A stretch of 34,787 bases of DNA, taken from the UHGV virus genome UHGV-0075096; one strand, given 5' to 3'. Numbering within the stretch: position 1 is the first letter of the stretch; the number at the start of each line of letters is the position of its first letter. Below, in pieces: positions 2,766 to 34,787 of the stretch. Position numbers and translations under genes: made by a program. The notes beneath the pieces were generated by a model. The model did not search any database and was not told the DNA's origin. It was given only the letters and a program-made list of their open reading frames with translations. The DNA is from a virus.

Positions 2766-3806
2766 CTAAGCTGTCGCGACATTTTTGCGACATTTTAGGG
2801 GGTTAAGTCGCACAGCATCTTCAAGGTGGCTTGGGGCGAAGTGGGCATAACGCATTGTCATGGTTATGTCAGCGTGGCCGAGAATTTTTTGCAAAACCAG
2901 AATGTTTCCGCCGTTCATCATAAAGTGGCTGGCAAATGTATGGCGCAGTACATGGGTAAGCTGGCCGGAGGGGAGTTCAATGCCTGCGCGTTCCAGAGCA
3001 GAGCGGAAAGCGTTGTAGCAGGGCTTGGGGAACAGAGCGCCTTTTGTTTCAGGTAATTCGGACAGAAGTTCATCATCAAGGGGAATTGTTCTGTTGCGCT
3101 TCCCTTTGGTTTTGACGAACGTGACTTTACCCCCGGCGATCTGGGAGCTTTTCAGCGTTGCCGCCTCATTCCACCTTGCGCCGGTAGCAAGGCAGATTTT
3201 GACAACTAATTCTAGGTACTTAACTTTGCTTCGTTTGCATTCCAGTAAAAGCCGATCAATTTCTTCGGTAGTGAGGAAAGCCATTTCGGTTTCATCAGTA
3301 CGATACTGTCTGACGTTTTCCAGTGGGTTGGGTGCTGACCATTCACCAATCCGTTTCAGTTCATTGAACATCGCTAGAAAGTAAGCATGTTCAAGGTTCA
3401 TAGTTTTCGGGGAAACCTTAGATACTCTGTTGGTGCGGGCATAATGCCCATCCAGCCTTTTAGCGCGGTAGGCTGTGAACAACTGGGCATTAAATTCTGT
3501 GGCCAGCGGGAATCCCATGCATTCCGCCGCCCAGGTCATAGCATCTTTACGCTTTTCGCCATTGCTCAAAGCTACGCCGTGGCGTTCATACCACATTGTT
3601 ATCAGATCTATTAAAGTTCGCTTGTCCTTCCCTTCACCCAGCCACGGAGCTGCGTCTACTTTCTGAAGCGTATGGTTTTCGAATGCCAGGGCTTCCCCTT
3701 TCGTGGCAAATTTTTTACGTATACGCTTCCCGTTCTTGCCATTACTGCGGTTGACGGTGTAGAAGTCGGCGATCCATTCGCCTGTAGGAAGTTTACGAAC
3801 GCTCAT
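2766..3806 (-). CDS. int: P2/186-type tyrosine integrase
   Basis: 346 aa; N-terminal region similar to P2 Int (GKNGKRIRKKF...), C-terminal catalytic motifs ATGARWNEA, HVLRHTFASH and the Y of MTMRYAHF; lies 2 bp downstream of cI as in 186. Confidence 0.9.
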   Translation of the reverse strand: MSVRKLPTGEWIADFYTVNRSNGKNGKRIRKKFATKGEALAFENHTLQKVDAAPWLGEGKDKRTLIDLITMWYERHGVALSNGEKRKDAMTWAAECMGFPLATEFNAQLFTAYRAKRLDGHYARTNRVSKVSPKTMNLEHAYFLAMFNELKRIGEWSAPNPLENVRQYRTDETEMAFLTTEEIDRLLLECKRSKVKYLELVVKICLATGARWNEAATLKSSQIAGGKVTFVKTKGKRNRTIPLDDELLSELPETKGALFPKPCYNAFRSALERAGIELPSGQLTHVLRHTFASHFMMNGGNILVLQKILGHADITMTMRYAHFAPSHLEDAVRLNPLKCRKNVATA

Positions 3807-4776: not shown

Positions 4777-5280
4777 ATGTTTGATTACCAGACATCTAAA
4801 CATGCGCACTTTGATGCGGCTTGCCGAGCATTTGCAACTGAGCACAATCTTGAAGATGTGGCCGCTGCTGTTGGTATGAGGCCACAGATCTTGCGCAACA
4901 AACTGAACCCAGCGCAACCGCACCGCCTAACCTGTGATGAGCTTTTGGCTATCACGGATTACACCGAAGATGCACGTTTACTTGATGGGATGTTAGGTCA
5001 GATTAACTGCCTTCCATCCGTGCCGGTGAACAATGCCACTGAAGCCAACATGCAACTGTGTGCGCTTAGCGCCACTGCGTGTGTGGGAGCGATTGCTGGG
5101 GAAGCCGTATCAACTGGCCATATGACCGCCGCCCGCCGTGCTCAAATTTTGGATCGCGCCCGCGATGCAATCCGTAGCTTATCCGTGCTGGCTTATACCG
5201 TTGAAAGCCGTATTCACTCTGCGCCGGTTCTGGCTGCTGCGGTGGATCTGGTCACAACCCACGCCACCGGCCTGATGTGA
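4777..5280 (+). CDS. 186 CII-like transcriptional activator (CP76 family)
   Basis: 167 aa beginning MFDYQTSKHAHFDAACRAFA, the size and position of 186 cII directly after apl; GGGAGAGG RBS. Confidence 0.7.
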   Translation: MFDYQTSKHAHFDAACRAFATEHNLEDVAAAVGMRPQILRNKLNPAQPHRLTCDELLAITDYTEDARLLDGMLGQINCLPSVPVNNATEANMQLCALSATACVGAIAGEAVSTGHMTAARRAQILDRARDAIRSLSVLAYTVESRIHSAPVLAAAVDLVTTHATGLM

Positions 5281-5289
5281 GGGAACACT

Positions 5290-5463
5290 ATGAAAGCGTT
5301 TGTCACTTACCTGAAAAAAGAATCACCAGCCATGCAGTTGCCGAGTGGTTCAACGGGCTGGATAGAACTGCCGAACGGTCAGCGCTGGAACCCAGGCCAC
5401 ATTTACAAATTCAATGGCCAGCAGCCGCGCCGCCCGTGGTGGCGTCGTCTGATGGGGCTATAG
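5290..5463 (+). CDS. hypothetical small early protein (57 aa)
   Basis: Hand translation gives MKAFVTYLKKESPAMQLPSGSTGWIELPNGQRWNPGHIYKFNGQQPRRPWWRRLMGL; GAGGGA RBS 5 nt upstream; ends just before the strong RBS of the next gene; below the track cutoff. Confidence 0.35.
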   Translation: MKAFVTYLKKESPAMQLPSGSTGWIELPNGQRWNPGHIYKFNGQQPRRPWWRRLMGL

Positions 5464-5471
5464 GAGGCGTT

Positions 5472-5900
5472 ATGGCGATTAGCCAGGAACAGCAAAAGCG
5501 CGGGCTGGAGCATTTAAAACAGATCCGCCGCAAATACTTCAGCAAAAGCAGCGAGGCCGCTGAATGGTGGGACAACTTAACACCGGAGTGGCGCGGCGTA
5601 GTGCTTCATGCTGCTGCGGTTACATCTGGTACCGGGGCATTTAAAGCCCATTTAAGTAAGTGCTGCTGGCGGGAGCTTTATGACCGCCTGGGCTATCGGG
5701 ACATGATTCAACTGCGCCAGGGCATTTCACGGGCGCGGTTAACGTTTGAAGGTTTCGGCAGTTTACGTGACAGCGATTTTTCGAAGCGCACCGCGAACCG
5801 CCCGATCAAAAAAGTACATCCCATTTATAGCAGTGGCGGGGTGCAGATGGTGATCGCGCCGCATATCGTCCATAAGTTCCAGCAACAGGGGAATCACTAA
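5472..5900 (+). CDS. hypothetical phage early protein (142 aa)
   Basis: An internal ATG of ORF 5277..5900 is preceded by a consensus AGGAGG RBS (5462-5467); the upstream part of the track ORF overlaps the cII end and the 57-aa ORF and is probably not translated. Confidence 0.6.
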   Translation: MAISQEQQKRGLEHLKQIRRKYFSKSSEAAEWWDNLTPEWRGVVLHAAAVTSGTGAFKAHLSKCCWRELYDRLGYRDMIQLRQGISRARLTFEGFGSLRDSDFSKRTANRPIKKVHPIYSSGGVQMVIAPHIVHKFQQQGNH

Positions 5901-6301
5901 TGACCATTATTTCCGTTGAGGGCAAATCGTTGGGGGCAGAGCTGGCTGTGTGGGGCGTCCCGCATAACTACGCATTAGCGTTTGCAGAGAAAAGCACCAG
6001 TAAAAATGGGCGTATCGCTTTGCATCCGTTCTTCTTCAATGACACTGAACACATGACAAATCCGCGTCACTGGCTGGCGATCAATGCTGCTTTCTGGTGC
6101 TGCGTGTATCGCGAAGCGGAAAGCAAAGAAGCCCAGATAGAAGCGCTGGCGGGGATTCGTGCAATTTTCTATACAGCCGGGGCATTGGGAGTTGGCGAGA
6201 TAAAAGCGCTGATCCAGGAGTGGTGGCGGACAACCTATGAGCTGCACCTGATTCCGGCTCCGAACTACTCAGCCGCCACAGTACAACCCACTTTTCACTA
6301 A
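5900..6301 (+). CDS. hypothetical phage early protein (133 aa)
   Basis: ORF whose start overlaps the previous stop (TAATG), suggesting translational coupling in the early operon. Confidence 0.55.
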   Translation: MTIISVEGKSLGAELAVWGVPHNYALAFAEKSTSKNGRIALHPFFFNDTEHMTNPRHWLAINAAFWCCVYREAESKEAQIEALAGIRAIFYTAGALGVGEIKALIQEWWRTTYELHLIPAPNYSAATVQPTFH

Positions 6302-16007: not shown

Positions 16008-16154
16008 ATGAAAGAAAGCCATTTACAAGGTGCACATACCCATACCGTGGGGGCACATAGCCATTCTCTGGGTGGTGCACATACCCATACCGTGGGTGCA
16101 CATAGCCATTCTCTGAGTGGTGCACATACGCACACTTTTAATACTGAGCAGTAA
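16008..16154 (+). CDS. His-rich repeat micro-protein (48 aa, 12 His)
   Basis: Hand translation: MKESHLQGAHTHTVGAHSHSLGGAHTHTVGAHSHSLSGAHTHTFNTEQ; AAGGA RBS 8 nt upstream of the ATG; built on a 45-bp tandem repeat; below the track cutoff. Confidence 0.4.
   Translation: MKESHLQGAHTHTVGAHSHSLGGAHTHTVGAHSHSLSGAHTHTFNTEQ
16029..16136 (+). repeat. 45-bp tandem direct repeat, about 2.4 copies
   Basis: Unit GGTGCACATACCCATACCGTGGG(G/T)GCACATAGCCATTCTCTG(G/A)GT; copies differ at 2 positions; in frame with the micro-ORF. Confidence 0.85.
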
Positions 16155-26725: not shown

Positions 26726-27312
26726 TGACTTTTAAAATGAGTGAAACCGATCAAGCAGTTACTGTTTATAACCTGCGTTCCGACACGAATGAGTTTATTG
26801 GTTCGGGGGACGCTTTTATTCCCGCACATACCGGACTGCCAGCCAACTGCACCACAATAAAACCACCGGTAATCAAAGCAGGGTTTGTGGCAATTTTTGA
26901 TTCAGAGAAGCAAAGATGGATTTCCCGTGAGGATCATCGTGGCGAGGTGGTGTTTGATACAGAAAACGGTAATGAACTGGTGATCACCGAGCCAGGCGCT
27001 TACCCGGAAGGGACAACCACGTTAGCACCGGCTAATGCCTGGCAAAAATGGAATGGTAAGGCGTGGGTGGATGATGCGGAGGCCATGCGAATTGCATTAG
27101 TCAGCGAGGCAGACGCCGAAAAGAAAAGACTGCTTAAACAGGCCAATGACGCCATTGCCACATTGCAGGATGCCGTTGATTTAGACATGGCAACCGAAGA
27201 AGAAGCATTGCTGCTTACCGCATGGAAAAAATACCGCGTTTTACTGAATCGTATTCAACCGGAAGATGCGCCAGAAATTGTGTGGCCGGAGGTGCCTGGA
27301 AATGTGGCGTGA
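26725..27312 (+). CDS. tail fibre assembly protein (Tfa; P2 gpG-like)
   Basis: 195 aa ending with the motif typical of Tfa chaperones (WKKYRVLLNRIQPEDAPEIVWPEVP); directly downstream of the fibre gene. Confidence 0.8.
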   Translation: MTFKMSETDQAVTVYNLRSDTNEFIGSGDAFIPAHTGLPANCTTIKPPVIKAGFVAIFDSEKQRWISREDHRGEVVFDTENGNELVITEPGAYPEGTTTLAPANAWQKWNGKAWVDDAEAMRIALVSEADAEKKRLLKQANDAIATLQDAVDLDMATEEEALLLTAWKKYRVLLNRIQPEDAPEIVWPEVPGNVA

Positions 27313-28027
27313 AGCACGTCTGGCCTTCACGGATTCAGTTGCTGCGCTGAACTGTTCGATCGTCCCTGCGCATCCGTGGATTTATGGGCTGGGACAGCAG
27401 ACAGCGAACGGGGCATATCTCAGCCCGGTTAATGCCGTTCGCTATCTTGCTGAACGCCTGGCCGGAACAGGGGGGAATGCGGATGTGGTGATTATGATGG
27501 TCACCGGACAGACGCAGGAAAACTTTATGGCCAGCCTGAATAACCTGGTCGGGATTTTCCCCGCCCCGGCATTCACGCAGGTCAAACGGCTGGCGCAATC
27601 CGCCGCAGTGCTGGCTATTGAAAAGATGCAGATTCCGGCGAAAACCGCCGCTGCGTTACCTGCGTCCATTCCGCTGTCTGTATCAACCAGCAGGGCAGCT
27701 TTATCTGCTGCGGCAATCAGCCAGGCACAAAAGGCGGCGGGTGCCGGGTTTGATATCGAAGGGCTGAAAAAACAGCTGGGCGAGTTCACGCAACTGCGTG
27801 ACCAGCTTATCAGTGATGTGGCCAGCGGCCTGAATGATTTACAGGGGAAGAGTGCCAGAGCGTGGGTTTTTACTGCCAGCGGAGACACCGGCACCACGTT
27901 ACTGGAACTGGTGAAGGACATTCCGCAGCAGTCTGCCGTTTACACCGCAGCCATGATGCTGGTTGGCGATAATCTTGATGGAATAAAGGGAATGATTCAT
28001 GACTTCGATCCCGACACTGGCGCTTAA
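27302..28027 (+). CDS. hypothetical protein (241 aa) downstream of Tfa
   Basis: Internal ATG with a GGAGG RBS; Ala-rich; no family recognised by eye; occupies the position corresponding to the P2 Z/fun cargo locus. Confidence 0.5.
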   Translation: MWREARLAFTDSVAALNCSIVPAHPWIYGLGQQTANGAYLSPVNAVRYLAERLAGTGGNADVVIMMVTGQTQENFMASLNNLVGIFPAPAFTQVKRLAQSAAVLAIEKMQIPAKTAAALPASIPLSVSTSRAALSAAAISQAQKAAGAGFDIEGLKKQLGEFTQLRDQLISDVASGLNDLQGKSARAWVFTASGDTGTTLLELVKDIPQQSAVYTAAMMLVGDNLDGIKGMIHDFDPDTGA

Positions 28028-28544
28028 TGGCGAGGCTATCCAGCTGAAAAACATGCGGGTGACTGTTTCACAGCAATTTCAGGATAAAGATCAGTCCGGC
28101 CAGACCAGCGCCACAACAAAATCAGAGCAGGGAGCAAAGGGAAAGGAACTGCGGATCAGCGGTGAAATACCTTTTAAACAGCCTGAAATACTGAAGCGTA
28201 TTTTTGAGCTTGCCAGCGCTACCGATGCCAGTGGTAATCGTCAAAAGTACCGTGTGGCGCATGAAGTTGCCCGTGCTGTTAATTTTCGTGAAGCAACGTT
28301 CAGCGGAATGCTGGATGCACCCCAGCAGGACGGGAAAATGTCCTGGCTGGTGACGTTCACACTGGCGGAACATATCAGCGTGCAGGAAAAGCGAGAGGCC
28401 AGAGCAACAGGTAAGACGACCGCAAAAAAACAGACTGCCGGTAGTGCGGGACAGGCCGGTGGCCAGTCTGCCGGAGAAGATGAAGAAAAACTGACGTGGT
28501 TTGAACGCAAGGTGCTGAAGCCCGTCAATGATGCTTTGGGTTAA
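27999..28544 (+). CDS. hypothetical tail-associated protein (181 aa)
   Basis: ORF coupled to the downstream hub/spike gene (TAATG overlap); start uncertain because it overlaps the upstream gene by 29 nt. Confidence 0.45.
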   Translation: MTSIPTLALNGEAIQLKNMRVTVSQQFQDKDQSGQTSATTKSEQGAKGKELRISGEIPFKQPEILKRIFELASATDASGNRQKYRVAHEVARAVNFREATFSGMLDAPQQDGKMSWLVTFTLAEHISVQEKREARATGKTTAKKQTAGSAGQAGGQSAGEDEEKLTWFERKVLKPVNDALG

Positions 28545-30247
28545 TGATGAAACCAGTAAAACGCCTTTACCTTTCAACGGATGAAGTTCACCTGGTGGAT
28601 GCCAGCCTGGTACTGGAGCTGAACAGCTGCGGCCGGGGCTTCATCACCGCAGAGACAACAACCGATTACACCGGAAAACTGGTGCGGCTGGATGTAGGGT
28701 ATACCGATCTGCTTTTGCGCTGGTTTACGGGGTACGTGGAGCGATCGCAGCCCGCAGAAAACGGTTTTCAGCGTCTGTTCATTCGTGAGCTGGTAGGTGT
28801 GTTTGAAAGGATGTGGCCGTGCTCATTTCAACATCCAACTTTACGCGAGGTTGCCAGCTGGCTGGAAGAAAACAGTGGTATCTCGGTCAGTGTGCCTGAT
28901 GCACAGTACAGCGATACCCCCATCCCACATTTTACCCATAACGGTACCGGCTATCAGTTGCTGAACAATCTGGGAAGGGCGTTCAGTATCCAGGATTACA
29001 TCTGGTACCAGTTGCCTGATGGTTCGCTTTACGTCGGTGGCGCAGAAAAGTCACTGTTTGCCGGTCGTCCCGTAGAAATCCCGTCAGAGTTCAGCCAGGG
29101 GGCTGCTGGTGGTAACTCTGTGACATTACCAGTGATCCAGACTATGCGGCCAGGGGTGGAGATGAACGGTGAACGCGTGACTAAAGTTCACCTGACTAAT
29201 GACACGATGGCGATCACATGGACGCCGAGAAACCGCGCAACGGGTAAACCTTTGCAGAAAACACCGGCGCAACGGCAGATTGAAAGCCATTACCCGGAAC
29301 TGGCATCCGGGCTTCATTTGCCAAAGACGGCCAGAGTCGTGGCGCATTCAGAGCCAGTAAAAAGCGGTAACTTTGCCGATCCCTTCCGGCCACGTTACGC
29401 CGTGGACGTGCAACTGCTTGACGCAGACGGAAACCCGGACAATCAGACGCCTGTTTACTCAGCGGTGCCGCTGCCGGTACCAATGGCCGGGAATGATTCA
29501 GGTATGTTTCAGTTCCCGCCTGAAGGGACGCTGGTTGAGGTCGCATTCACAGGAGGCAGACCGGATAAACCCTTTATCAGGCAGACGCTGCCGGATGGCA
29601 CCAGTCTGCCGGACGTTAAACCCGGTGAGCAATTACAGCAGCAGCGGGAAGAAGTATCCCTGAGGGTGACTCAGGCGGGTGACTGGGTAAGGCAGACCGA
29701 TCAGACCATCAGCGAAACATCAATGGTGCGAACCGTAAAAGCCGATACAGAACAGCGCGAACTGGTCAGCCGTGAAACCACGGTGAAAGCCACGGATAAA
29801 ACCACGGTACTGGGAACCGCCACATTGCTGGCCGGAGCCATCCAGCAGGTAAGCGCCGGTGATTATAGCCAGGCGGTGAAAGGTAACAGGCTGGCCAGTA
29901 TTGAAGGAAACGAAGAAACGGACATAGCAGGACAGCAGTCCACTAAAGTGGGCGGTGCTGTAGCCGTGGAGGTTGGCGAAAGTCTGACAGAGAAGATTGC
30001 CGCACTGCGTAAATCAGTGGCTGCTGGCGGTCAGCAGGTCATGGGGGCAACTGTCCATATTGGCAGTGAGAGCATCAACGCCCTGACCATGATGCTGGAT
30101 ACCATTGATTTACTGGCAGAGCTTGCGCAGCAATGCGCGAACCATTCGCACCCCACCGTTGGAACTCCAACCAATGCCGCCGCGTTCACACTGACGGCGA
30201 CGAAAGCCGGGCAGACCCGGAGCAAATACCAGAATATAATTGCCTGA
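28544..30247 (+). CDS. putative baseplate hub/central spike protein (gpD/gpV-like)
   Basis: 567 aa, last gene of the tail module and followed by a strong terminator; the C-terminal region contains CANHSHPTVG (an HxH motif as in spike apex domains). Assignment is inferred from position and motifs. Confidence 0.45.
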   Translation: MMKPVKRLYLSTDEVHLVDASLVLELNSCGRGFITAETTTDYTGKLVRLDVGYTDLLLRWFTGYVERSQPAENGFQRLFIRELVGVFERMWPCSFQHPTLREVASWLEENSGISVSVPDAQYSDTPIPHFTHNGTGYQLLNNLGRAFSIQDYIWYQLPDGSLYVGGAEKSLFAGRPVEIPSEFSQGAAGGNSVTLPVIQTMRPGVEMNGERVTKVHLTNDTMAITWTPRNRATGKPLQKTPAQRQIESHYPELASGLHLPKTARVVAHSEPVKSGNFADPFRPRYAVDVQLLDADGNPDNQTPVYSAVPLPVPMAGNDSGMFQFPPEGTLVEVAFTGGRPDKPFIRQTLPDGTSLPDVKPGEQLQQQREEVSLRVTQAGDWVRQTDQTISETSMVRTVKADTEQRELVSRETTVKATDKTTVLGTATLLAGAIQQVSAGDYSQAVKGNRLASIEGNEETDIAGQQSTKVGGAVAVEVGESLTEKIAALRKSVAAGGQQVMGATVHIGSESINALTMMLDTIDLLAELAQQCANHSHPTVGTPTNAAAFTLTATKAGQTRSKYQNIIA

Positions 30248-30259
30248 CCATGATAACAC

Positions 30260-30282
30260 GCCCGCATAATGCGGGCTTTTTT
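30260..30282 (+). terminator. rho-independent terminator of the tail operon
   Basis: GCCCGCA-TAA-TGCGGGC hairpin followed by TTTTTT, 13 bp after the stop at 30247. Confidence 0.85.
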
Positions 30283-30692
30283 ATACCCTTCTCCAGACGC
30301 AGCAGAACGCACCCTCAGCACTTTAGGCAACAAATTAACCCAACTCAACACACATAAAAGATCGTGCGCATGGCGCTGCGTTGGCGCGACGATGCACCGA
30401 CAAAATAAATCTTTCGCAGACAAAAACGGCGCTACACCGCACCCGCCTGCGGTTTCTGGATCTGGAAAATTTTTCTGTTTTATTTTTCTACAAAACAGAC
30501 CGCCAGACCGCGCCGCTGCTGGCGGCTTTGCGGAGAACTGAAACTGAAATGATTGAAAAGGATTTCACTTTTTTTCAGTGAAAAGGATCTGTGAAGGATC
30601 GATGGGAAAATATAACTATCAGAATATAAAAGAGAAATTGAATTTTAGGTGGCGTTTGTGGATCGTTAGTTAAAGGGGGGGGGATATTCTGT

Positions 30693-30724
30693 AAAAAAGC
30701 CCGCGACATCAGATGTGGCGCGGG
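30693..30724 (-). terminator. rho-independent terminator downstream of the glycosyltransferase-like gene
   Basis: On the minus strand, hairpin CCCGCGCCACATC-A-GATGTCGCGGG (one 2-nt bulge) followed by TTTTTT; 40 bp beyond the stop at 30764. Confidence 0.65.
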
Positions 30725-30763
30725 ATGGATAGAAATTTATTCTTATAGAACAACTGAAAAAAA

Positions 30764-31480
30764 TTACTTTAAACTGAGTTTAAAATTTTTGAATTTACCA
30801 TACAGGGTATCGCGTACAGAAAAGGAAGGAACCCAATTGAATCCTGTTCGCCATGGGCGAGGACTACCGTGAAAGCATACAACTGAAACATCATCAGGAA
30901 CTTTGCCAGTAGCATAATCTGATGCCAAGTCAGGGTTGTAACCTATCATTTTACGTGTGGCTATATGGCATTTGTAACTAACAACAGATCCGGGAATTAT
31001 ATCTTGCCACAATACAGGTTTCATGACGCTACCCAGAAACCCCTGATCACCCCATTTATCTTCTGTTTGGCATTCATGCATATTTTTTTCGGGGTCAGTC
31101 CAGAACGCATCCCAAACATATTGTTTGATAGACGCAGGAATGAACATAATGGATGAGTTAACCCTGGAAGGGTGGTTAAACTCCCGCAGCATAGTGAACT
31201 CTTTCGCCGCATCAAAGATTTTGATATCACCAGTTATGACAACATCAACGTCAAAATAAAGCAGATCCTTATCACCTATTACCGGATGGTTTGGATTAAA
31301 AAGCTCAATCTTAGACCACCAACCTGGAAGGTTGTGCATTAACGGTGCGGTTTCAACACCAGGGATACTTCCAGCATCAGTTAAGCAAATTGAAGGTATG
31401 CCTTTAAATTGGCTATGCAGCCATTGTGCGTGTTTGGGGGTAAATTCTTTACCGCATTTAAGGACGGATACAATCAGCAT
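30764..31480 (-). CDS. putative GT-A fold glycosyltransferase (GT8-like motifs)
   Basis: 238 aa; DxD-type motif (LLYFDVDVVITGD) and a C-terminal H-x2-G-x2-(K/R)-P-W motif (FHGSPRPW) characteristic of retaining GT8 enzymes; GC visibly lower than the prophage core. Confidence 0.45.
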   Translation of the reverse strand: MLIVSVLKCGKEFTPKHAQWLHSQFKGIPSICLTDAGSIPGVETAPLMHNLPGWWSKIELFNPNHPVIGDKDLLYFDVDVVITGDIKIFDAAKEFTMLREFNHPSRVNSSIMFIPASIKQYVWDAFWTDPEKNMHECQTEDKWGDQGFLGSVMKPVLWQDIIPGSVVSYKCHIATRKMIGYNPDLASDYATGKVPDDVSVVCFHGSPRPWRTGFNWVPSFSVRDTLYGKFKNFKLSLK

Positions 31481-31660
31481 ATGGGAATCCCATTCTTTAG
31501 AGCAATAGTGTGCATTTTTTGAACATCGGCAATACTAAAATAAATAGTCAGGGCATAATTTTCTTAGGTAAGAGTCATGATGCCTCATGCCATTCCTTAC
31601 GTAAAGCTAGGCAGACTCAGCATAATGAGGGGACAAAAAGGGGACGCTGACCACTACAAA

Positions 31661-31689
31661 CAAAAAAGCCACTCCGTCAGAAGTGGCTT
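31661..31689 (-). terminator. rho-independent terminator (minus strand)
   Basis: On the minus strand, AAGCCACT-N8-AGTGGCTT hairpin followed by TTTTTT. Confidence 0.6.
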
Positions 31690-31843
31690 AATTATATGAT
31701 TATAAAGCTAAAATTTGGTGGCCCCTTGGACTTGAACCAGCGCCCGGGCGATTATAAGTCTTATGGTGTAACCTTTTGATATTTATATATAAATTTTATT
31801 TTTATGTGAATTTTAAGGATCTCTAACCGCTTTATTTTTGGCT

Positions 31844-31874
31844 AAAAAACCCGCAGTTGTAGCAATGATGCGGG
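31844..31874 (-). terminator. rho-independent terminator closing the minus-strand cargo operon
   Basis: On the minus strand, CCCGCA...TGCGGG hairpin followed by TTTTTT (plus-strand A6 at 31844-31849); about 220 bp downstream of the last long ORF. Confidence 0.55.
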
Positions 31875-32093
31875 TTGAGTTAGTCTTTAAAACTGAAATT
31901 GATCAGCCATAGCGTTCATAGGTAGCTGCGTATGCATTAACGTTTTTTAGGTGGTGGGGCTACTTGCTGCGTTTGCTGCGTTTGCCGTGGTGGTTGATAA
32001 CCATTGTTCTGCTGATTTGGCCTACTTGATGGTTGATATCCCTCATTTATAGGTTGCCAGCCATCATATTTAGTATTGTTTGCCGGTTTTTCT

Positions 32094-32744
32094 TCAGCCA
32101 TTTTTTACCTCACTATTGTTGGGAGAATGTAATTTTACCTCAATAAACTCAACACTTTCTATTTCATTAGTCAATATTATTATGCCTAATGTATCAGCTA
32201 GTTCGTGATCGAAATCGCCATTCTCATCAAGCGCCCAATGTTTCTCAAGATAGATTTGTTCGGGTTCTGGACTATTGGATGCAAATGAGTCACTTCCATA
32301 AAAACCACCATATTTTTTACCGTTTTTTAGTGTTACCAATACCCAGCAGCGTTGTCTGGTTGAGAAGAAGTAGTCCCAAGAGCGCCCTATAGGGTGTGGA
32401 AGAATATTTTTGACTTTTTCCCAGTTACGAATTTTTAGCAATGCAACAGGTAATAGTACAGGTATTACAATTAAAACTAAAAAGTAAAAAATGTAATATA
32501 AAATAGGGTGTTTCAAAAAAATGTCATTTGTTTCAATTAGATAAATTGGTATTAAAAGAAATGAAAAATTTATGCAACTATATGAAACAACGTCAATTAA
32601 AACTTTTGATGTATCCAAATCAATTGATGGGTGAAATAGTCTGTAAACTCTCATGCTGATAAATCCGGGCATAATGAACAGTACAAATAAAAACAATTTC
32701 CCCTTCTCTAAAATGTCCATTTTAATTCCTTTTGCATAAATCAA
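32094..32744 (-). CDS. uncharacterised membrane protein (3 predicted TM helices plus a roughly 100-aa soluble C-terminal domain)
   Basis: 216 aa; hydrophobic segments [26 protein letters not shown] and [20 protein letters not shown]; its ATG overlaps the upstream stop in an ATGA coupling; AT-rich codon usage. Confidence 0.6.
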
Positions 32745-33766
32745 TCATCTTTATTCATCAAATCATGGTGATATCCACAAACACCTCCAAAATCTTGTTC
32801 GTCTTGGGAAAGTGTTGTGCCACATATATAACATTCATTATAGTCAACTTCATAACCACACCACCGACATTTTTGCTCAGCTAGAATAAATGTATCATGG
32901 TTACAGTTAAAACATTCTTCATAAGTCGGTTCATCGCCATCAGGAGGCCAATAAAAAAACTCATCTTCAAAAACCTGCATAAGCAAAGGCGTAAATAAAT
33001 TGATATTCCCGCATGCAACGCACAAATACTTAAAATCGCTTTCAAAATCTTCTACTGTCAGACCTTCTTCTAAACTATCTTGTGAGGCTTTTATAAGTTT
33101 AGAACCACATTTATCGCAGCAACATTCGGGTAAAAATTCCATCATGCCTTCTGGAATACCTGCATACTCCCATGTTGACCTACACTCATATAATTTCGAA
33201 TTATAAAAAGTTTTGTGTTCCAGCATTGTACTCCAGGAACTGCCTAAAACATCTTGTGGAATTTTATCAAGTTCATTTGTTATGAAACTTTCAAGAACTG
33301 GAAATAAATCGGCGACAAAACCAGCAAGCTCGCCGAAAGTGTTTTGAGGATGTAAGTGTTCAAGATGATTTCGGCAATCCTGAAGTTTTTCAATGGCTGG
33401 CCAATCAACTTTTATGTTGAATTTATGAAAGCGCTCCTTTATGCCACAAACATCAATAGTCGATTTTTTAAACTTTCCTTCAGGTTTCCATTCTACCCCA
33501 CCTTTCCCATCGGGGTGGGGAAGCATTTTAGACGGTGGGTTATGTATTAGCACATACGCATGCTCAGGCGTGTCAACAGATTTGGCGATTTTATATTTGA
33601 ATAGTAATAATAAACCAGCGTAAAGATTACGTATGGATGAAAGAGTTCGCAATGAGTTATCAGGTTGTTGGGATAACTGGAAATCTTCAATCCCAAGTTG
33701 TATTGAAGCAATTGCGTTGTCATATAACTTATCCGCATCTAAGGTTAGTGAGGTTGTGTTACTCAT
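32741..33766 (-). CDS. uncharacterised protein with C-terminal multi-CxxC zinc-ribbon-like region
   Basis: 341 aa; C-terminal third contains CCCDKC, CVAC, CFNC, CRWC, CYIC and CGYHH; N-terminal domain contains an R-N-x3-H motif (RNHLEH); AAGGA RBS. Confidence 0.6.
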
Positions 33767-33840
33767 TGTTTGCTCTATCCTTAGTAAATAAAGTTGGATT
33801 ACATATTATGAAAAAAAGTTGGTGCATTCAATCAGTCATT

Positions 33841-34737
33841 TTAAAAGTTTTTCCCTGACCGCGCTAATGCTTTTTCTTCGTTAAAGTAACCAAGTATATA
33901 ATCTCTTATCTCTACACCTAATTTTTCACTTAAGTAAGGGATGTGGTATTCTGAAATATAAAATTGAATGTTGCAATTATCTATGAAATCTTCTTCATAA
34001 AGTTCATGTTTTATGACTGGAGTGTAATTATATCTGTTTTGAAAGATAACATATGGAATATTAAAAATGTGTTCTTCTTTATAGGTTTTATTTTTGAATT
34101 TACTTAACAAAATATCTAACCCGTCAGGATTTGAACTTAGTAAATCTTCAACTTCTTTACGATGTTTTTGTTCAAATAAATCAGTTAAGATATTTCTGTA
34201 GATAGGATTGATAGTACAAAGCGTAGTGGTTTTATCTAAACGATGTAATGGTAAAACTATCTCACCATCCAAAAGTCCCAAGAATGCTTTATTGTGTTCA
34301 TCATCGGTAGATCTTTCCAGTTGTATTGTGCAGTCATTATCTTTCAGCTTTAATAATATGGCTTTGGCAAAATGAGAGTAATCATTGAAACTGATTTTCA
34401 ATAGCTGTATTTTTTTAAGATCATTTCTTCGTTTTTCTTCTTCTTTTTTATCTAATGCTAGTTTGTTCTGTCTGACGATAAGTTTTTCTTTAGTAAATCG
34501 AATGAATAAGTCTACTATACCAAATAGTATGGATGATAGTAATGCACCAAGTGAAAAGCCTATAATTGTTATTAATGTAATAGAAAGTTCATTAGGTATT
34601 TTAAATTGGCCTAGTTTGGGTTCTACTAAAACCCAGCAACCGATGATTGAGCCAGCAATAATTAATAATCTTAGAGAAGAACGGAACGAAACTAAGTTAG
34701 TTAGGTGTGATAAAACGGTAGATAACGGGTCAGTCAT
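33841..34737 (-). CDS. uncharacterised membrane protein (2 N-terminal TM helices, Lys/Glu-rich coiled-coil-like linker, soluble C-terminal domain)
   Basis: 298 aa from the ATG at 34737, which has a strong AGGAGA RBS 7 nt upstream; TM segments LLIIAGSIIGCWVLV and ITLITIIGFSLGALLSSILFGIV; about 33% GC. Confidence 0.6.
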   Translation of the reverse strand: MTDPLSTVLSHLTNLVSFRSSLRLLIIAGSIIGCWVLVEPKLGQFKIPNELSITLITIIGFSLGALLSSILFGIVDLFIRFTKEKLIVRQNKLALDKKEEEKRRNDLKKIQLLKISFNDYSHFAKAILLKLKDNDCTIQLERSTDDEHNKAFLGLLDGEIVLPLHRLDKTTTLCTINPIYRNILTDLFEQKHRKEVEDLLSSNPDGLDILLSKFKNKTYKEEHIFNIPYVIFQNRYNYTPVIKHELYEEDFIDNCNIQFYISEYHIPYLSEKLGVEIRDYILGYFNEEKALARSGKNF

Positions 34738-34787
34738 GTAGGTGTCTCCTGACTTTTGGCTACAAATTATCACATTTTAGAGAAAGT

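Follow-up and report, generated by a model that had tools for sequence, protein, structure and literature searches.

What kind of product is encoded between the tail fibre assembly gene (Tfa) and the baseplate genes of an HP1-subgroup prophage is the question raised by a gene of 241 aa in the virus genome UHGV-0075096, whose entire stretch of 34,787 nucleotides is referred to here as the window. A preliminary description assigned the gene to a slot equivalent to the Z/fun cargo locus of P2, a variable defence hotspot, and conceded that a tail component of the lineage would be just as possible. The latter reading is favoured by its conservation, its operon position and the detection of a homologue, gp46 of Pseudoalteromonas phage ACA1, in virions. 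The gene is an orthologue of HP1 orf33 and belongs to the core of late genes in the HP1 subgroup; its product probably serves as a low-copy, lineage-specific accessory or adaptor protein of the baseplate.

Gene call and operon context

Based on Pfam and PHROG assignments, the window represents an HP1-subgroup Peduoviridae prophage from the integrase through orf35. Direct repeats indicative of att sites were not found with 13-nt seeds, and the right end of the prophage is probably located outside the window. The tail genes are arranged in the order tape measure protein, gpW-like protein, J, I, fibre, Tfa, the 241-aa gene, HP1_ORF34 and a fused hub/spike gene (orf35), followed by a terminator:

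21056..23023, plus strand, tape measure protein (HP1 orf27-like), in the upstream portion of the late tail operon; Pfam PhageMin_Tail, E=1e-21; PHROG 28
23002..23349, plus strand, DUF2590 protein (HP1 orf28-like); Pfam DUF2590, E=1e-45; gpW/sheath-initiator-like according to Table S1 of PMC10612066
23292..24530, plus strand, baseplate J-like wedge protein; Pfam Baseplate_J, E=4e-29
24517..25110, plus strand, gpI-like baseplate protein; PHROG 1228, E=1e-89; weak match to Tail_P2_I
25121..26725, plus strand, tail fibre with collar-fibre N-domain and swappable C-terminal part; Pfam Phage_tail_fib and Collar
26725..27312, plus strand, tail fibre assembly protein (Tfa); Pfam Caudo_TAP, E=5e-36
27288..27292, plus strand, GGAGG ribosome-binding site of the 241-aa gene; read from the sequence
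27302..28027, plus strand, gene under study, 241 aa, member of the HP1 orf33 / K139 orf37 / ACA1 gp46 family (PHROG 1677); profile match and tblastn
27999..28544, plus strand, HP1_ORF34-like baseplate protein; Pfam PF25759, E=4e-54; tentatively equated with P2 gpU (PMC10612066)
28544..30247, plus strand, HP1 orf35-like fusion of hub (gpD-like N-terminal part) and central spike (gpV/gp5-like C-terminal part); PHROG 2258 baseplate protein, E=3e-274; Phage_base_V and Gp5_C
30260..30276, plus strand, intrinsic terminator closing the late tail operon, GCCCGCATAATGCGGGC then TTTTTTAT; terminator scan

In the PDB, the orf35 product matched the T4 gp5 beta-helix (E=5e-7) and otherwise only generic gp5/VgrG spike domains, and searches with orf34 and J were empty. 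Hub and spike are encoded by two separate genes in other clades.

The gene under study begins with an ATG at position 27302 and ends with a TAA whose last base is position 28027, and the preliminary description was right to assign it a ribosome-binding site of its own, which is located 9 nt before the start codon. An alternative in-frame ATG at position 27266 would give a product of 253 aa, but the start at 27302 is preferred because Met1-Trp2 is the conserved N terminus of the enteric and Pasteurellaceae clades in a shallow two-clade alignment (A1) and because the detected homologues share the length of 241 aa. With 262 homologues at E<=1e-3 and a dN/dS of 0.10 among 79 relatives, the ORF is a genuine coding gene under purifying selection. 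Its predicted product is a soluble, acidic protein of 25 kDa that consists of 16.6% alanine, in agreement with the earlier designation as alanine-rich, and neither a transmembrane segment (maximum KD19 value of 1.09) nor a signal peptide was found. In a lipobox, Gly, Ala or Ser is expected directly before the cysteine; a lipoprotein reading of the motif AALNC was rejected, given that Asn precedes the cysteine, that a hydrophobic leader is missing and that the region is a confidently modelled beta-strand.

The gene is tightly embedded in the operon. Its start is overlapped by the end of Tfa over 11 nt, and orf34 starts 29 nt inside its 3' end; the same overlapping arrangement of starts and stops is present in YenM_324, HP1, phiO18P and K139. 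A motif scan revealed no promoter-like or terminator-like site flanking the gene, and the first terminator follows orf35. The core-like GC content noted previously was confirmed (0.559; the prophage core has 0.52 and the downstream island 0.36), and this GC-poor island, which follows orf35, constitutes the actual cargo slot of the prophage. The gene is predicted to be transcribed with the tail operon, and its translation may be coupled to that of Tfa upstream and to that of orf34 (possibly gpU-like) and orf35 (gpD- and gpV-like hub/spike) downstream.

These features bear on the proposal that a variable hotspot has here taken up a moron or cargo gene, e.g., for superinfection exclusion or anti-phage defence in the manner of P2 Fun(Z). 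The position after Tfa, where P2 has fun(Z), as well as the lack of a Pfam family or an assigned function would fit such a gene. However, fun(Z) of P2 is a non-essential gene of 528 aa, which is located on the opposite strand past the V-operon terminator and forms a separate transcription unit, whereas the present gene is conserved and lies inside the operon, on the same strand as its neighbours, overlapping both of them and lacking a promoter or terminator of its own. The core-like GC content and the absence of a signal peptide or transmembrane segment also speak against cargo, as do the PADLOC search, which yielded no family, and the missing similarity to Fun(Z), Tin and Old of P2 (probability <=0.2% with hhalign, which was insensitive, having missed control pairs). 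The equivalence to the Z/fun slot is thus not supported, and a cargo gene is highly improbable also in view of the evolutionary and virion data presented below.

Family membership and divergence with the baseplate genes

The earlier statement that the protein matches no structural family holds true for Pfam, NCBIfam, PADLOC and the PDB, all of which were negative, and it fails for PHROG 1677, which is matched over residues 15 to 227 with an E value of 2.3e-76, and for HP1 orf33. The profile search recommended at that time was productive; the structural comparison gave no neighbour. Homologues were detected by tblastn in HP1 (E=1e-11; 26-29% identity to orf33), HP2, K139, ESSI-2, SW3 and YenM_324, and near-identical copies (97.5-98.8%) are present in the Escherichia phage ESSI2_ev records. 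All 70 members of a diverse alignment (A2) match PHROG 1677, and a Pfam scan of 70 family members resulted in scattered single chance matches only. The HP1 orf33 family (UniProt P51737), which forms 108 clusters at 50% identity, also includes K139 orf37, HP2 orf33, Kappa kp43, F108 orf42, phiO18P gp44, ACA1 gp46 and YenM_324 gp33. The distant homologue ACA1 gp46 was assigned to the family with the A2 HMM (E=6e-21) and hhalign (97.2%), and aligns over residues 59 to 232 only. The proteins are comparable in length, with 209 aa for ACA1 gp46, 241 aa for the present protein and a maximum of about 300 aa, and the representatives of Vibrio, Aeromonas and Pseudomonas have an insertion of 55 to 70 residues after the first strand.

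The family occupies the same slot directly upstream of HP1_ORF34, with the same overlapping genes and no substantial difference from the present locus, in phages of Haemophilus, Pasteurella, Vibrio, Aeromonas, Pseudomonas, Pseudoalteromonas and enteric bacteria. The gene order within the tail operon is identical in HP1, YenM_324, phiO18P, phi3, F108, K139, A051, ACA1 and three metagenomic contigs. In a sample of contigs that was anchored on orf34 and not on the gene itself, it was present in 79 out of 79. Local insertions left this neighbourhood intact: in ACA1, a DGR cassette is located between the fibre and gp46, which still adjoins orf34, and in another genome (L086), BrnT/BrnA has been inserted downstream of orf34 and the orf33-family gene is still found directly upstream of it. 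The sole absences noted concern a marine Vibrio clade (PV94, yong1 and three V. cyclitrophicus prophages) that retains orf34, hub and spike and whose orf33 slot is empty and has not been refilled. The protein is therefore not strictly required for such baseplates.

The gene evolves in concert with the baseplate backbone. Its identity among 80 related contigs correlates with that of J (Spearman rho of 0.93), I (0.90), orf34 (0.92) and orf35 (0.84-0.88), and not with that of Tfa (0.29) or the fibre C terminus (0.40). Its dN/dS is like that of J, I, orf34 and orf35, for which values of 0.06-0.10 were obtained at similar dS. Among the conserved genes of the module, it evolves fastest, with 42% identity to YenM_324 versus 63-68% for its neighbours. 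As judged from these comparisons, the gene is co-inherited with the baseplate genes. Identity and dS patterns of this kind, together with the conserved position across genera and the complete retention, argue against cargo and leave the notion of a variable defence hotspot without support.

The same data are pertinent to a role in association with the tail fibre, i.e., as a second fibre chaperone or as an adaptor docking the fibre to the baseplate, in a functional group with H and Tfa. The gene follows directly after Tfa, and PV94, yong1 and one V. cyclitrophicus prophage (L097), which lack the family, also lack a separate Tfa, so that the fibre gene abuts orf34. However, the C-terminal part of the fibre and Tfa have been replaced in 47 of the 64 relatives, while the 241-aa gene stays in place and diverges together with J, I, orf34 and orf35. 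A dependence of orf33 on Tfa was ruled out by Aeromonas phage A051, which has orf33 and no Tfa, and by the two other V. cyclitrophicus prophages (L096 and L098), which have extra fibre-accessory genes and no orf33. Moreover, PV94 and yong1 possess the same PF12571 fibre N-domain in the absence of orf33, and the DGR cassette of ACA1 parts gp46 from the fibre genes and not from orf34. A fibre-associated function is accordingly unlikely.

Virion evidence and predicted structure

The evidence for a family member in the virion is thin: LC-MS/MS of ACA1 particles purified on CsCl yielded 2 spectra of gp46, at 6% coverage (PMC10612066, Table S2). The preparation contained some cellular contamination. 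Neither the scaffold domain nor non-structural phage proteins were seen in the virions; accepted baseplate proteins gave equally low numbers of spectra, namely, 1 for gpW, 2 for gpJ and 2 for gpV (PMC10612066). The presence of a homologue in purified virions (PMC10612066) was just the kind of observation that the preliminary description had named in advance as evidence against defence cargo. The record of YenM_324 labels the homologue gp33 as a structural protein and does not give the ground for this label; the literature on vB_YenM_324, K139 orf37 and the Hpunavirus baseplate offered nothing directly useful. The 241-aa protein most likely becomes part of the virion in a few copies, as a lineage-specific accessory or adaptor of the baseplate, and would be assembled along with the hub proteins of the adjacent genes.

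A non-structural assembly factor, i.e., a chaperone or scaffold for the hub or baseplate that is produced along with the hub proteins and for the most part kept out of the finished virion, appears somewhat doubtful. It would be compatible with the very low mass spectrometric signal of ACA1 gp46, the fast evolution of the gene, its loss from the Vibrio clade described above, whose members still have orf34, hub and spike, and the missing structural likeness to known baseplate components, and also with the invariant residues of the family (L, A, N and P), which are of a structural rather than a catalytic or enzyme-like type. Against it stand the detection of gp46 in the very experiment in which other non-structural proteins and the scaffold domain went undetected, the equally low spectral counts of the accepted baseplate proteins and, with the reservation regarding its basis, the annotation of the YenM_324 homologue.

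Structural prediction resulted in a confident model. A first AlphaFold2 model from the shallow alignment A1 reached a pLDDT of 67, and its Foldseek matches were noise; the model from 70 diverse sequences reached a pLDDT of 91.6 and shows a conserved alpha/beta core with a variable, alanine-rich helical insertion at about residues 113 to 183. With the latter model, Foldseek found no neighbour (best E values of 0.5 in the PDB and 1.2 in BFVD), and PDB sequence and profile searches were empty with the single sequence, A1 and A2. CheC/FliM-like proteins, which were among the top matches in both Foldseek runs against the PDB, were taken as chance matches with TM scores of about 0.1 to 0.2. Likewise, neither Caudo_TAP nor another Pfam domain was found in the protein, and Pfam, NCBIfam, PDB and Foldseek revealed no likeness in sequence or fold to known baseplate families (P2 gpU, gpD, gpX, gpV and gpW; T4 gp25, gp27, gp5, gp53, gp48 and gp54). 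A comparison of the family profile with every P2 protein by hhalign, including U, D, X, V, W, Fun(Z), Tin and Old, remained below 3% throughout and was insensitive, since the expected pairs DUF2590-gpW and orf35 C-terminal part-gpV were likewise missed.

Significance and comparison with known baseplates

Because the 241-aa gene is not cargo, it is of little value for the discovery of defence systems. Its value for the structural biology of phages is modest: prophages of the HP1 subgroup are frequently found in Enterobacteria, Pasteurellaceae, Vibrio, Aeromonas and Pseudomonas, no solved structure matched their baseplate in our PDB sequence searches, and the orf33 family has a confident model and yet no Pfam family, assigned function or structural neighbour. 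The label "HP1 orf33-family tail/baseplate-module protein" would prevent miscalls of cargo in hotspot scans that rely on the gene order of P2.

Among the known systems, P2 offers a parallel in gene arrangement. Its small, essential tail proteins gpX, a LysM-like "baseplate hub" protein of 67 aa, and gpU (159 aa) have genes that adjoin the hub gene D or lie in its vicinity, and in the HP1 subgroup, orf33 and orf34 are located directly before the gpD/gpV-like orf35. No counterpart of gpX is listed in PMC10612066. The 241-aa protein differs from gpX and gpU in size and shows no detectable sequence similarity to them (Pfam; hhalign <1%, with the insensitivity stated above) and no fold match in the PDB; a functional equivalence to gpX may at most be surmised. 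More tentatively, the orf33 family might represent a baseplate component of a hitherto unseen fold that is specific for the HP1 subgroup and replaces a missing part, such as the LysM "glue" gpX by which hub and wedges are joined in P2, or acts as a lineage-specific trigger or adaptor; remodelling of the hub would then allow its loss, of which the marine Vibrio clade would be an example. If this is true, the "minimal" contractile baseplate of a large group of prophages has a part of its own that is without counterpart in T4, Mu, P2, pyocins and the T6SS.

The late tail operon and its 241-codon gene

The window contains a complete HP1-subgroup Peduoviridae prophage with an integrase gene (2766-3806, minus strand), early and replication genes (CI, CII, Dam, gpA replication protein), the Ogr/Delta regulator, head and packaging genes (portal, terminase, gpO scaffold, P2-type capsid, gpL, gpR, gpS) and genes for the DUF2586 sheath, HP1 Orf24 tube, holin, endolysin, spanin and tail assembly chaperone. 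The gene under study belongs to the late tail operon.

Genes of the late tail region
21056-23023, tape measure
23002-23349, DUF2590 protein
23292-24530, Baseplate_J protein
24517-25110, gpI-like protein
25121-26725, tail fibre
26725-27312, Caudo_TAP tail fibre assembly protein (Tfa)
27302-28027, plus strand, gene under study
27999-28544, HP1_ORF34 protein (PF25759, E=4e-54)
28544-30247, 567-aa orf35-like protein with gpV-type OB domain and gp5-type beta-helix

The reading frame extends from an ATG at 27302 to a TAA at 28025-28027, and GGAGG (27288-27292) is located 9 nt 5' of the start. A second in-frame ATG at 27266 would yield a 253-aa product, but the 27302 start is preferred because an invariant Met-Trp opens all enteric and Pasteurellaceae homologues in a shallow alignment (A1) and because the database homologues have the same length of 241 aa. 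The gene lies on the plus strand and shares its first 11 nt with the 3' end of Tfa and its last 29 nt with the start of the orf34-like gene. No promoter-like or terminator-like sites flanking the gene were found in a scan of the region, whose top terminator-like site (GCCCGCATAATGCGGGC plus a T-run, 30260-30276) lies directly 3' of the orf35-like gene. Membership in the late tail operon and cotranslation with the hub proteins are demonstrated with near certainty. The product contains 16.6% Ala, has a pI of 5.35 and lacks a hydrophobic segment (maximal 19-residue Kyte-Doolittle mean of 1.09); the GC content is 0.559 versus 0.52 for the prophage core. The facts of the preliminary description, i.e., an Ala-rich 241-aa ORF with a GGAGG ribosome-binding site and core-like GC following Tfa, were all confirmed.

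The 567-aa orf35-like protein matches PHROG 2258 ('baseplate protein'; E=3e-274) and T4 gp5 in the PDB (E=5e-7). Hub (gpD-like N-part) and spike (gpV/gp5-like C-part) form one protein in the window (567 aa), HP1, K139 and phiO18P and two genes in ACA1, PV94, yong1 and several metagenomic relatives (loci compared: L083 9420-11113, L085 9460-11218, L091 6555-7996, L094 15689-17319). Elsewhere in the prophage, a 48-aa ORF (16008-16154, plus strand), flanked by the gpM-like small terminase gene and the gpL-like gene, is composed of G-A-H-T/S-H-T/S repeats (MKESHLQGAHTHTVGAHSHSLGGAHTHTVGAHSHSLSGAHTHTFNTEQ) with tandem 45-nt DNA repeats at 16029-16118; the tail fibre gene contains an H-x-H 'phage fibre repeat' region (26555-26620) with which the 45-nt repeat shares 60-62% identity.

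The orf33 family and its distribution

The gene is a near-identical new member of the known, uncharacterised HP1 orf33 / PHROG 1677 family (unknown function; E=2e-76). In tblastn searches, identities were 97.5-98.8% for Escherichia phages ESSI2_ev015, ev129, ev239 and ev040, 61% for Cronobacter ESSI-2, 50% for Salmonella SW3, SW5 and SI7, 42.5% for Yersinia vB_YenM_324 and 25-26% for orf33 of Haemophilus HP1 and HP2; Vibrio K139 orf37 and Kappa kp43 were also matched. A profile of 70 diverse members (A2) detected the family in Aeromonas A051 as well as in three distant metagenomic contigs whose gene order is the same. In annotated records, the homologue invariably follows the fibre/Tfa genes and precedes the homologues of orf34 and orf35; it is labelled 'structural protein' in YenM_324, and among 5426 complete E. 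coli genomes PGAP annotated the region in 44, each time as 'hypothetical protein'. HMMER, run exhaustively against 1.84 billion representatives, retrieved only 108 clusters at 50% identity, and the family is therefore small and restricted to the HP1-subgroup lineage. Nearly all full-length members comprise 210-306 aa, and no Pfam, NCBIfam or PADLOC model matched the window protein or any other member.

Pseudomonas phage phi3 (KT887559.1, locus L088 ~5081-5998) carries an unannotated family gene of ~300 aa (A2 HMM E=5e-39). The labels of the orf34 homologues in phi3 ('nucleoid DNA-binding protein') and in PV94 and YenM_324 ('adenine glycosylase') look like annotation errors. In five homologues of odd length (P0022, P0075, P0094, P0102, P0207), an orf33 part is joined to spike or fibre fragments, e.g., residues 1-91 followed by orf35-like sequence in P0207; these are probably deletion products of decaying prophages rather than true domain fusions.

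The family was not found in the whole genome of Vibrio phage PV94 (L091/L092), in vB_ValM-yong1 (L090) or in three V. cyclitrophicus prophages (L096-L098). This marine Vibrio clade, in which the fibre gene or small fibre-accessory genes adjoin orf34, retains orf34 and has separate genes for the hub and for a shorter spike. Its lack of orf33 indicates that the protein is accessory and was lost or replaced in one clade; among the conserved genes of the tail module, this one moreover evolves fastest. A conserved 65-aa ORF follows the shorter spike gene in the same phages. Dependence of orf33 on a separate Tfa was rejected, since orf33 is present in Aeromonas A051, which has no Tfa, and missing from L096 and L098 despite their fibre-accessory genes.

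Core gene and variable slot

Four independent tests (selection, mosaicism, retention, insertions) agree in indicating a core gene. The dN/dS of the gene in 79 related viral contigs was 0.10 (dS ~1.07), compared with 0.06-0.08 (dS 0.75-0.9) for J, I, orf34 and orf35; the gene is under purifying selection, and its divergence has kept pace with that of its neighbours. The fibre C-terminal part and Tfa were absent or unrecognisable in 47 of the 64 relatives having both J and spike. Spearman correlations of gene identity (80 contigs) reached 0.93 with J, 0.90 with I, 0.92 with orf34 and 0.84-0.88 with orf35, whereas identity was uncorrelated with Tfa (0.29) or the fibre tip (0.40); the contigs were chosen for carrying the gene, which makes their retention rate circular and leaves the correlations as the evidence. 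The host-range cassette is thus swapped up to the Tfa/orf33 junction, while orf33 remains linked to the baseplate backbone. When contigs were sampled through orf34 (phiO18P-type homologue), the family adjoined orf34 in 79/79 contigs with enough upstream sequence. Foreign DNA in the tail module was located beside the orf33-orf34 pair, never inside it. In ACA1, a DGR cassette with avd and reverse transcriptase separates gp46 from the fibre/antireceptor genes (L094 12693-14588); in a JGI contig, the toxin-antitoxin pair BrnT/BrnA separates orf34 from the hub gene (L086 4527-5088).

The proposal of a Z/fun-type cargo slot failed every test for such a locus, and the gene is almost certainly neither cargo nor defence. 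The variable cargo/defence slot of the prophage looks instead to be a low-GC island. Downstream of the operon terminator (30500-34787), the GC content falls to 0.32-0.41, and four or five minus-strand genes are encoded between the tail genes and host mntR, the prophage being inserted between mntS and mntR.

ORFs of the low-GC island (all minus strand)
30764-31480
31937-32101
32094-32744
32741-33766
33841-34773

A 341-aa island protein matches the PADLOC candidate defence family PDC-S64 (E=2.5e-47) and another is a DUF6338 protein; the remaining ORFs had no Pfam match. Among 5426 complete E. coli genomes, only 1 contains the whole island. This strain, Combat13F7 (L100, NZ_CP019245.1 67113-89650), harbours a deleted remnant at the same site (ompX-opgE-mntS / mntR) with integrase, CI, CII, Fil, one 579-aa gene and the identical island, but lacks the head genes and most of the tail genes, so that a functional phage is not required for the island to persist.

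Predicted fold and proposed role

AlphaFold2 reached a pLDDT of only 67 with the shallow alignment and a mean pLDDT of 91.6 (pTM 0.78) with A2. The model represents an alpha/beta core broken by a helical insertion.

Predicted secondary structure (residues)
Strands: 2-8, 19-23, 59-69, 184-195, 214-222
Helices: 42-54, 72-85, 89-107, 128-147, 152-182, 196-203

Conservation is concentrated in an N-terminal motif (H-P-W..G.G...Y-L-S-P.N-A, residues 24-45), residues ~86-112 and the C-terminal strands; residues ~113-183 are variable and Ala-rich. The invariant or near-invariant positions of the broad alignment (L40, N44, A45, P208) are structural-type residues and form no catalytic set. None of the Foldseek hits was credible, the best E-values being 0.5 in the PDB and 1.2 in BFVD, and sequence and profile searches of the PDB had no matches. 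The statement that the protein matches no structural family stands for Pfam, NCBIfam, PADLOC and PDB. Among the baseplates in the PDB are those of T4, pyocin, AFP/PVC, T6SS and several myophages. The gene product matched none of the characterised baseplate families tested, and PDB sequence searches with the baseplate-module proteins retrieved no related solved structure. Either the predicted fold is new among solved structures or its relationship is invisible to Foldseek; this confidently predicted fold without structural neighbours is the only unusual aspect of an otherwise ordinary and essentially explained gene.

Virion data are available for the HP1-subgroup Pseudoalteromonas phage ACA1 (Hwang et al., Viruses 2023;15:2061; PMC10612066). 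HHpred related gp46 to HP1 orf33 (P51737), gp47 to HP1 orf34 (with an uncertain link to P2 gpU), gp48 to the N-part of HP1 orf35 and P2 gpD, and gp49 to its C-part and P2 gpV (PMC10612066 Table S1). We independently placed gp46 in the family (A2 HMM E=6e-21; hhalign probability 97.2% across residues 59-232 of the window protein). LC-MS/MS of CsCl-purified virions detected gp46 with 2 spectra (6% coverage), similar to gpW (1), gpJ (2) and gpV (2) (PMC10612066 Table S2). This detection of a distant homologue in purified virions speaks, if weakly, against the cargo reading. The family protein probably enters virions at low copy, judging from this data set and one annotation. The ACA1 authors state some cellular contamination; the scaffold domain and all proteins unexpected in virions were undetected (PMC10612066). 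A non-structural assembly factor for hub or baseplate, the main rival, would be made together with the hub proteins and mostly kept out of the finished virion, and we consider it rather unlikely.

The suggestion of a lineage-specific tail component is favoured by operon placement, codivergence with J, I, orf34 and orf35, and gp46 in virions. Gene position, coupling and codivergence lead us to lean towards a baseplate location, where the protein may connect hub (orf34/orf35) and wedge (J/I) as an adaptor specific to the lineage. A role in fibre docking or as a fibre chaperone would fit the neighbouring Tfa but not the independent divergence of the two genes, and is less likely still than an assembly factor. 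These gradings are our own judgement.

P2 fun(Z) is encoded on the opposite strand behind the V-operon terminator, unlike the gene under study, and in the HP1 subgroup the hub genes come after G, which differs from the P2 gene order. P2 gpX is a small LysM-like hub protein for which the HP1 subgroup appears to have no recognisable counterpart, and it is tempting to speculate that orf33 fills its place.
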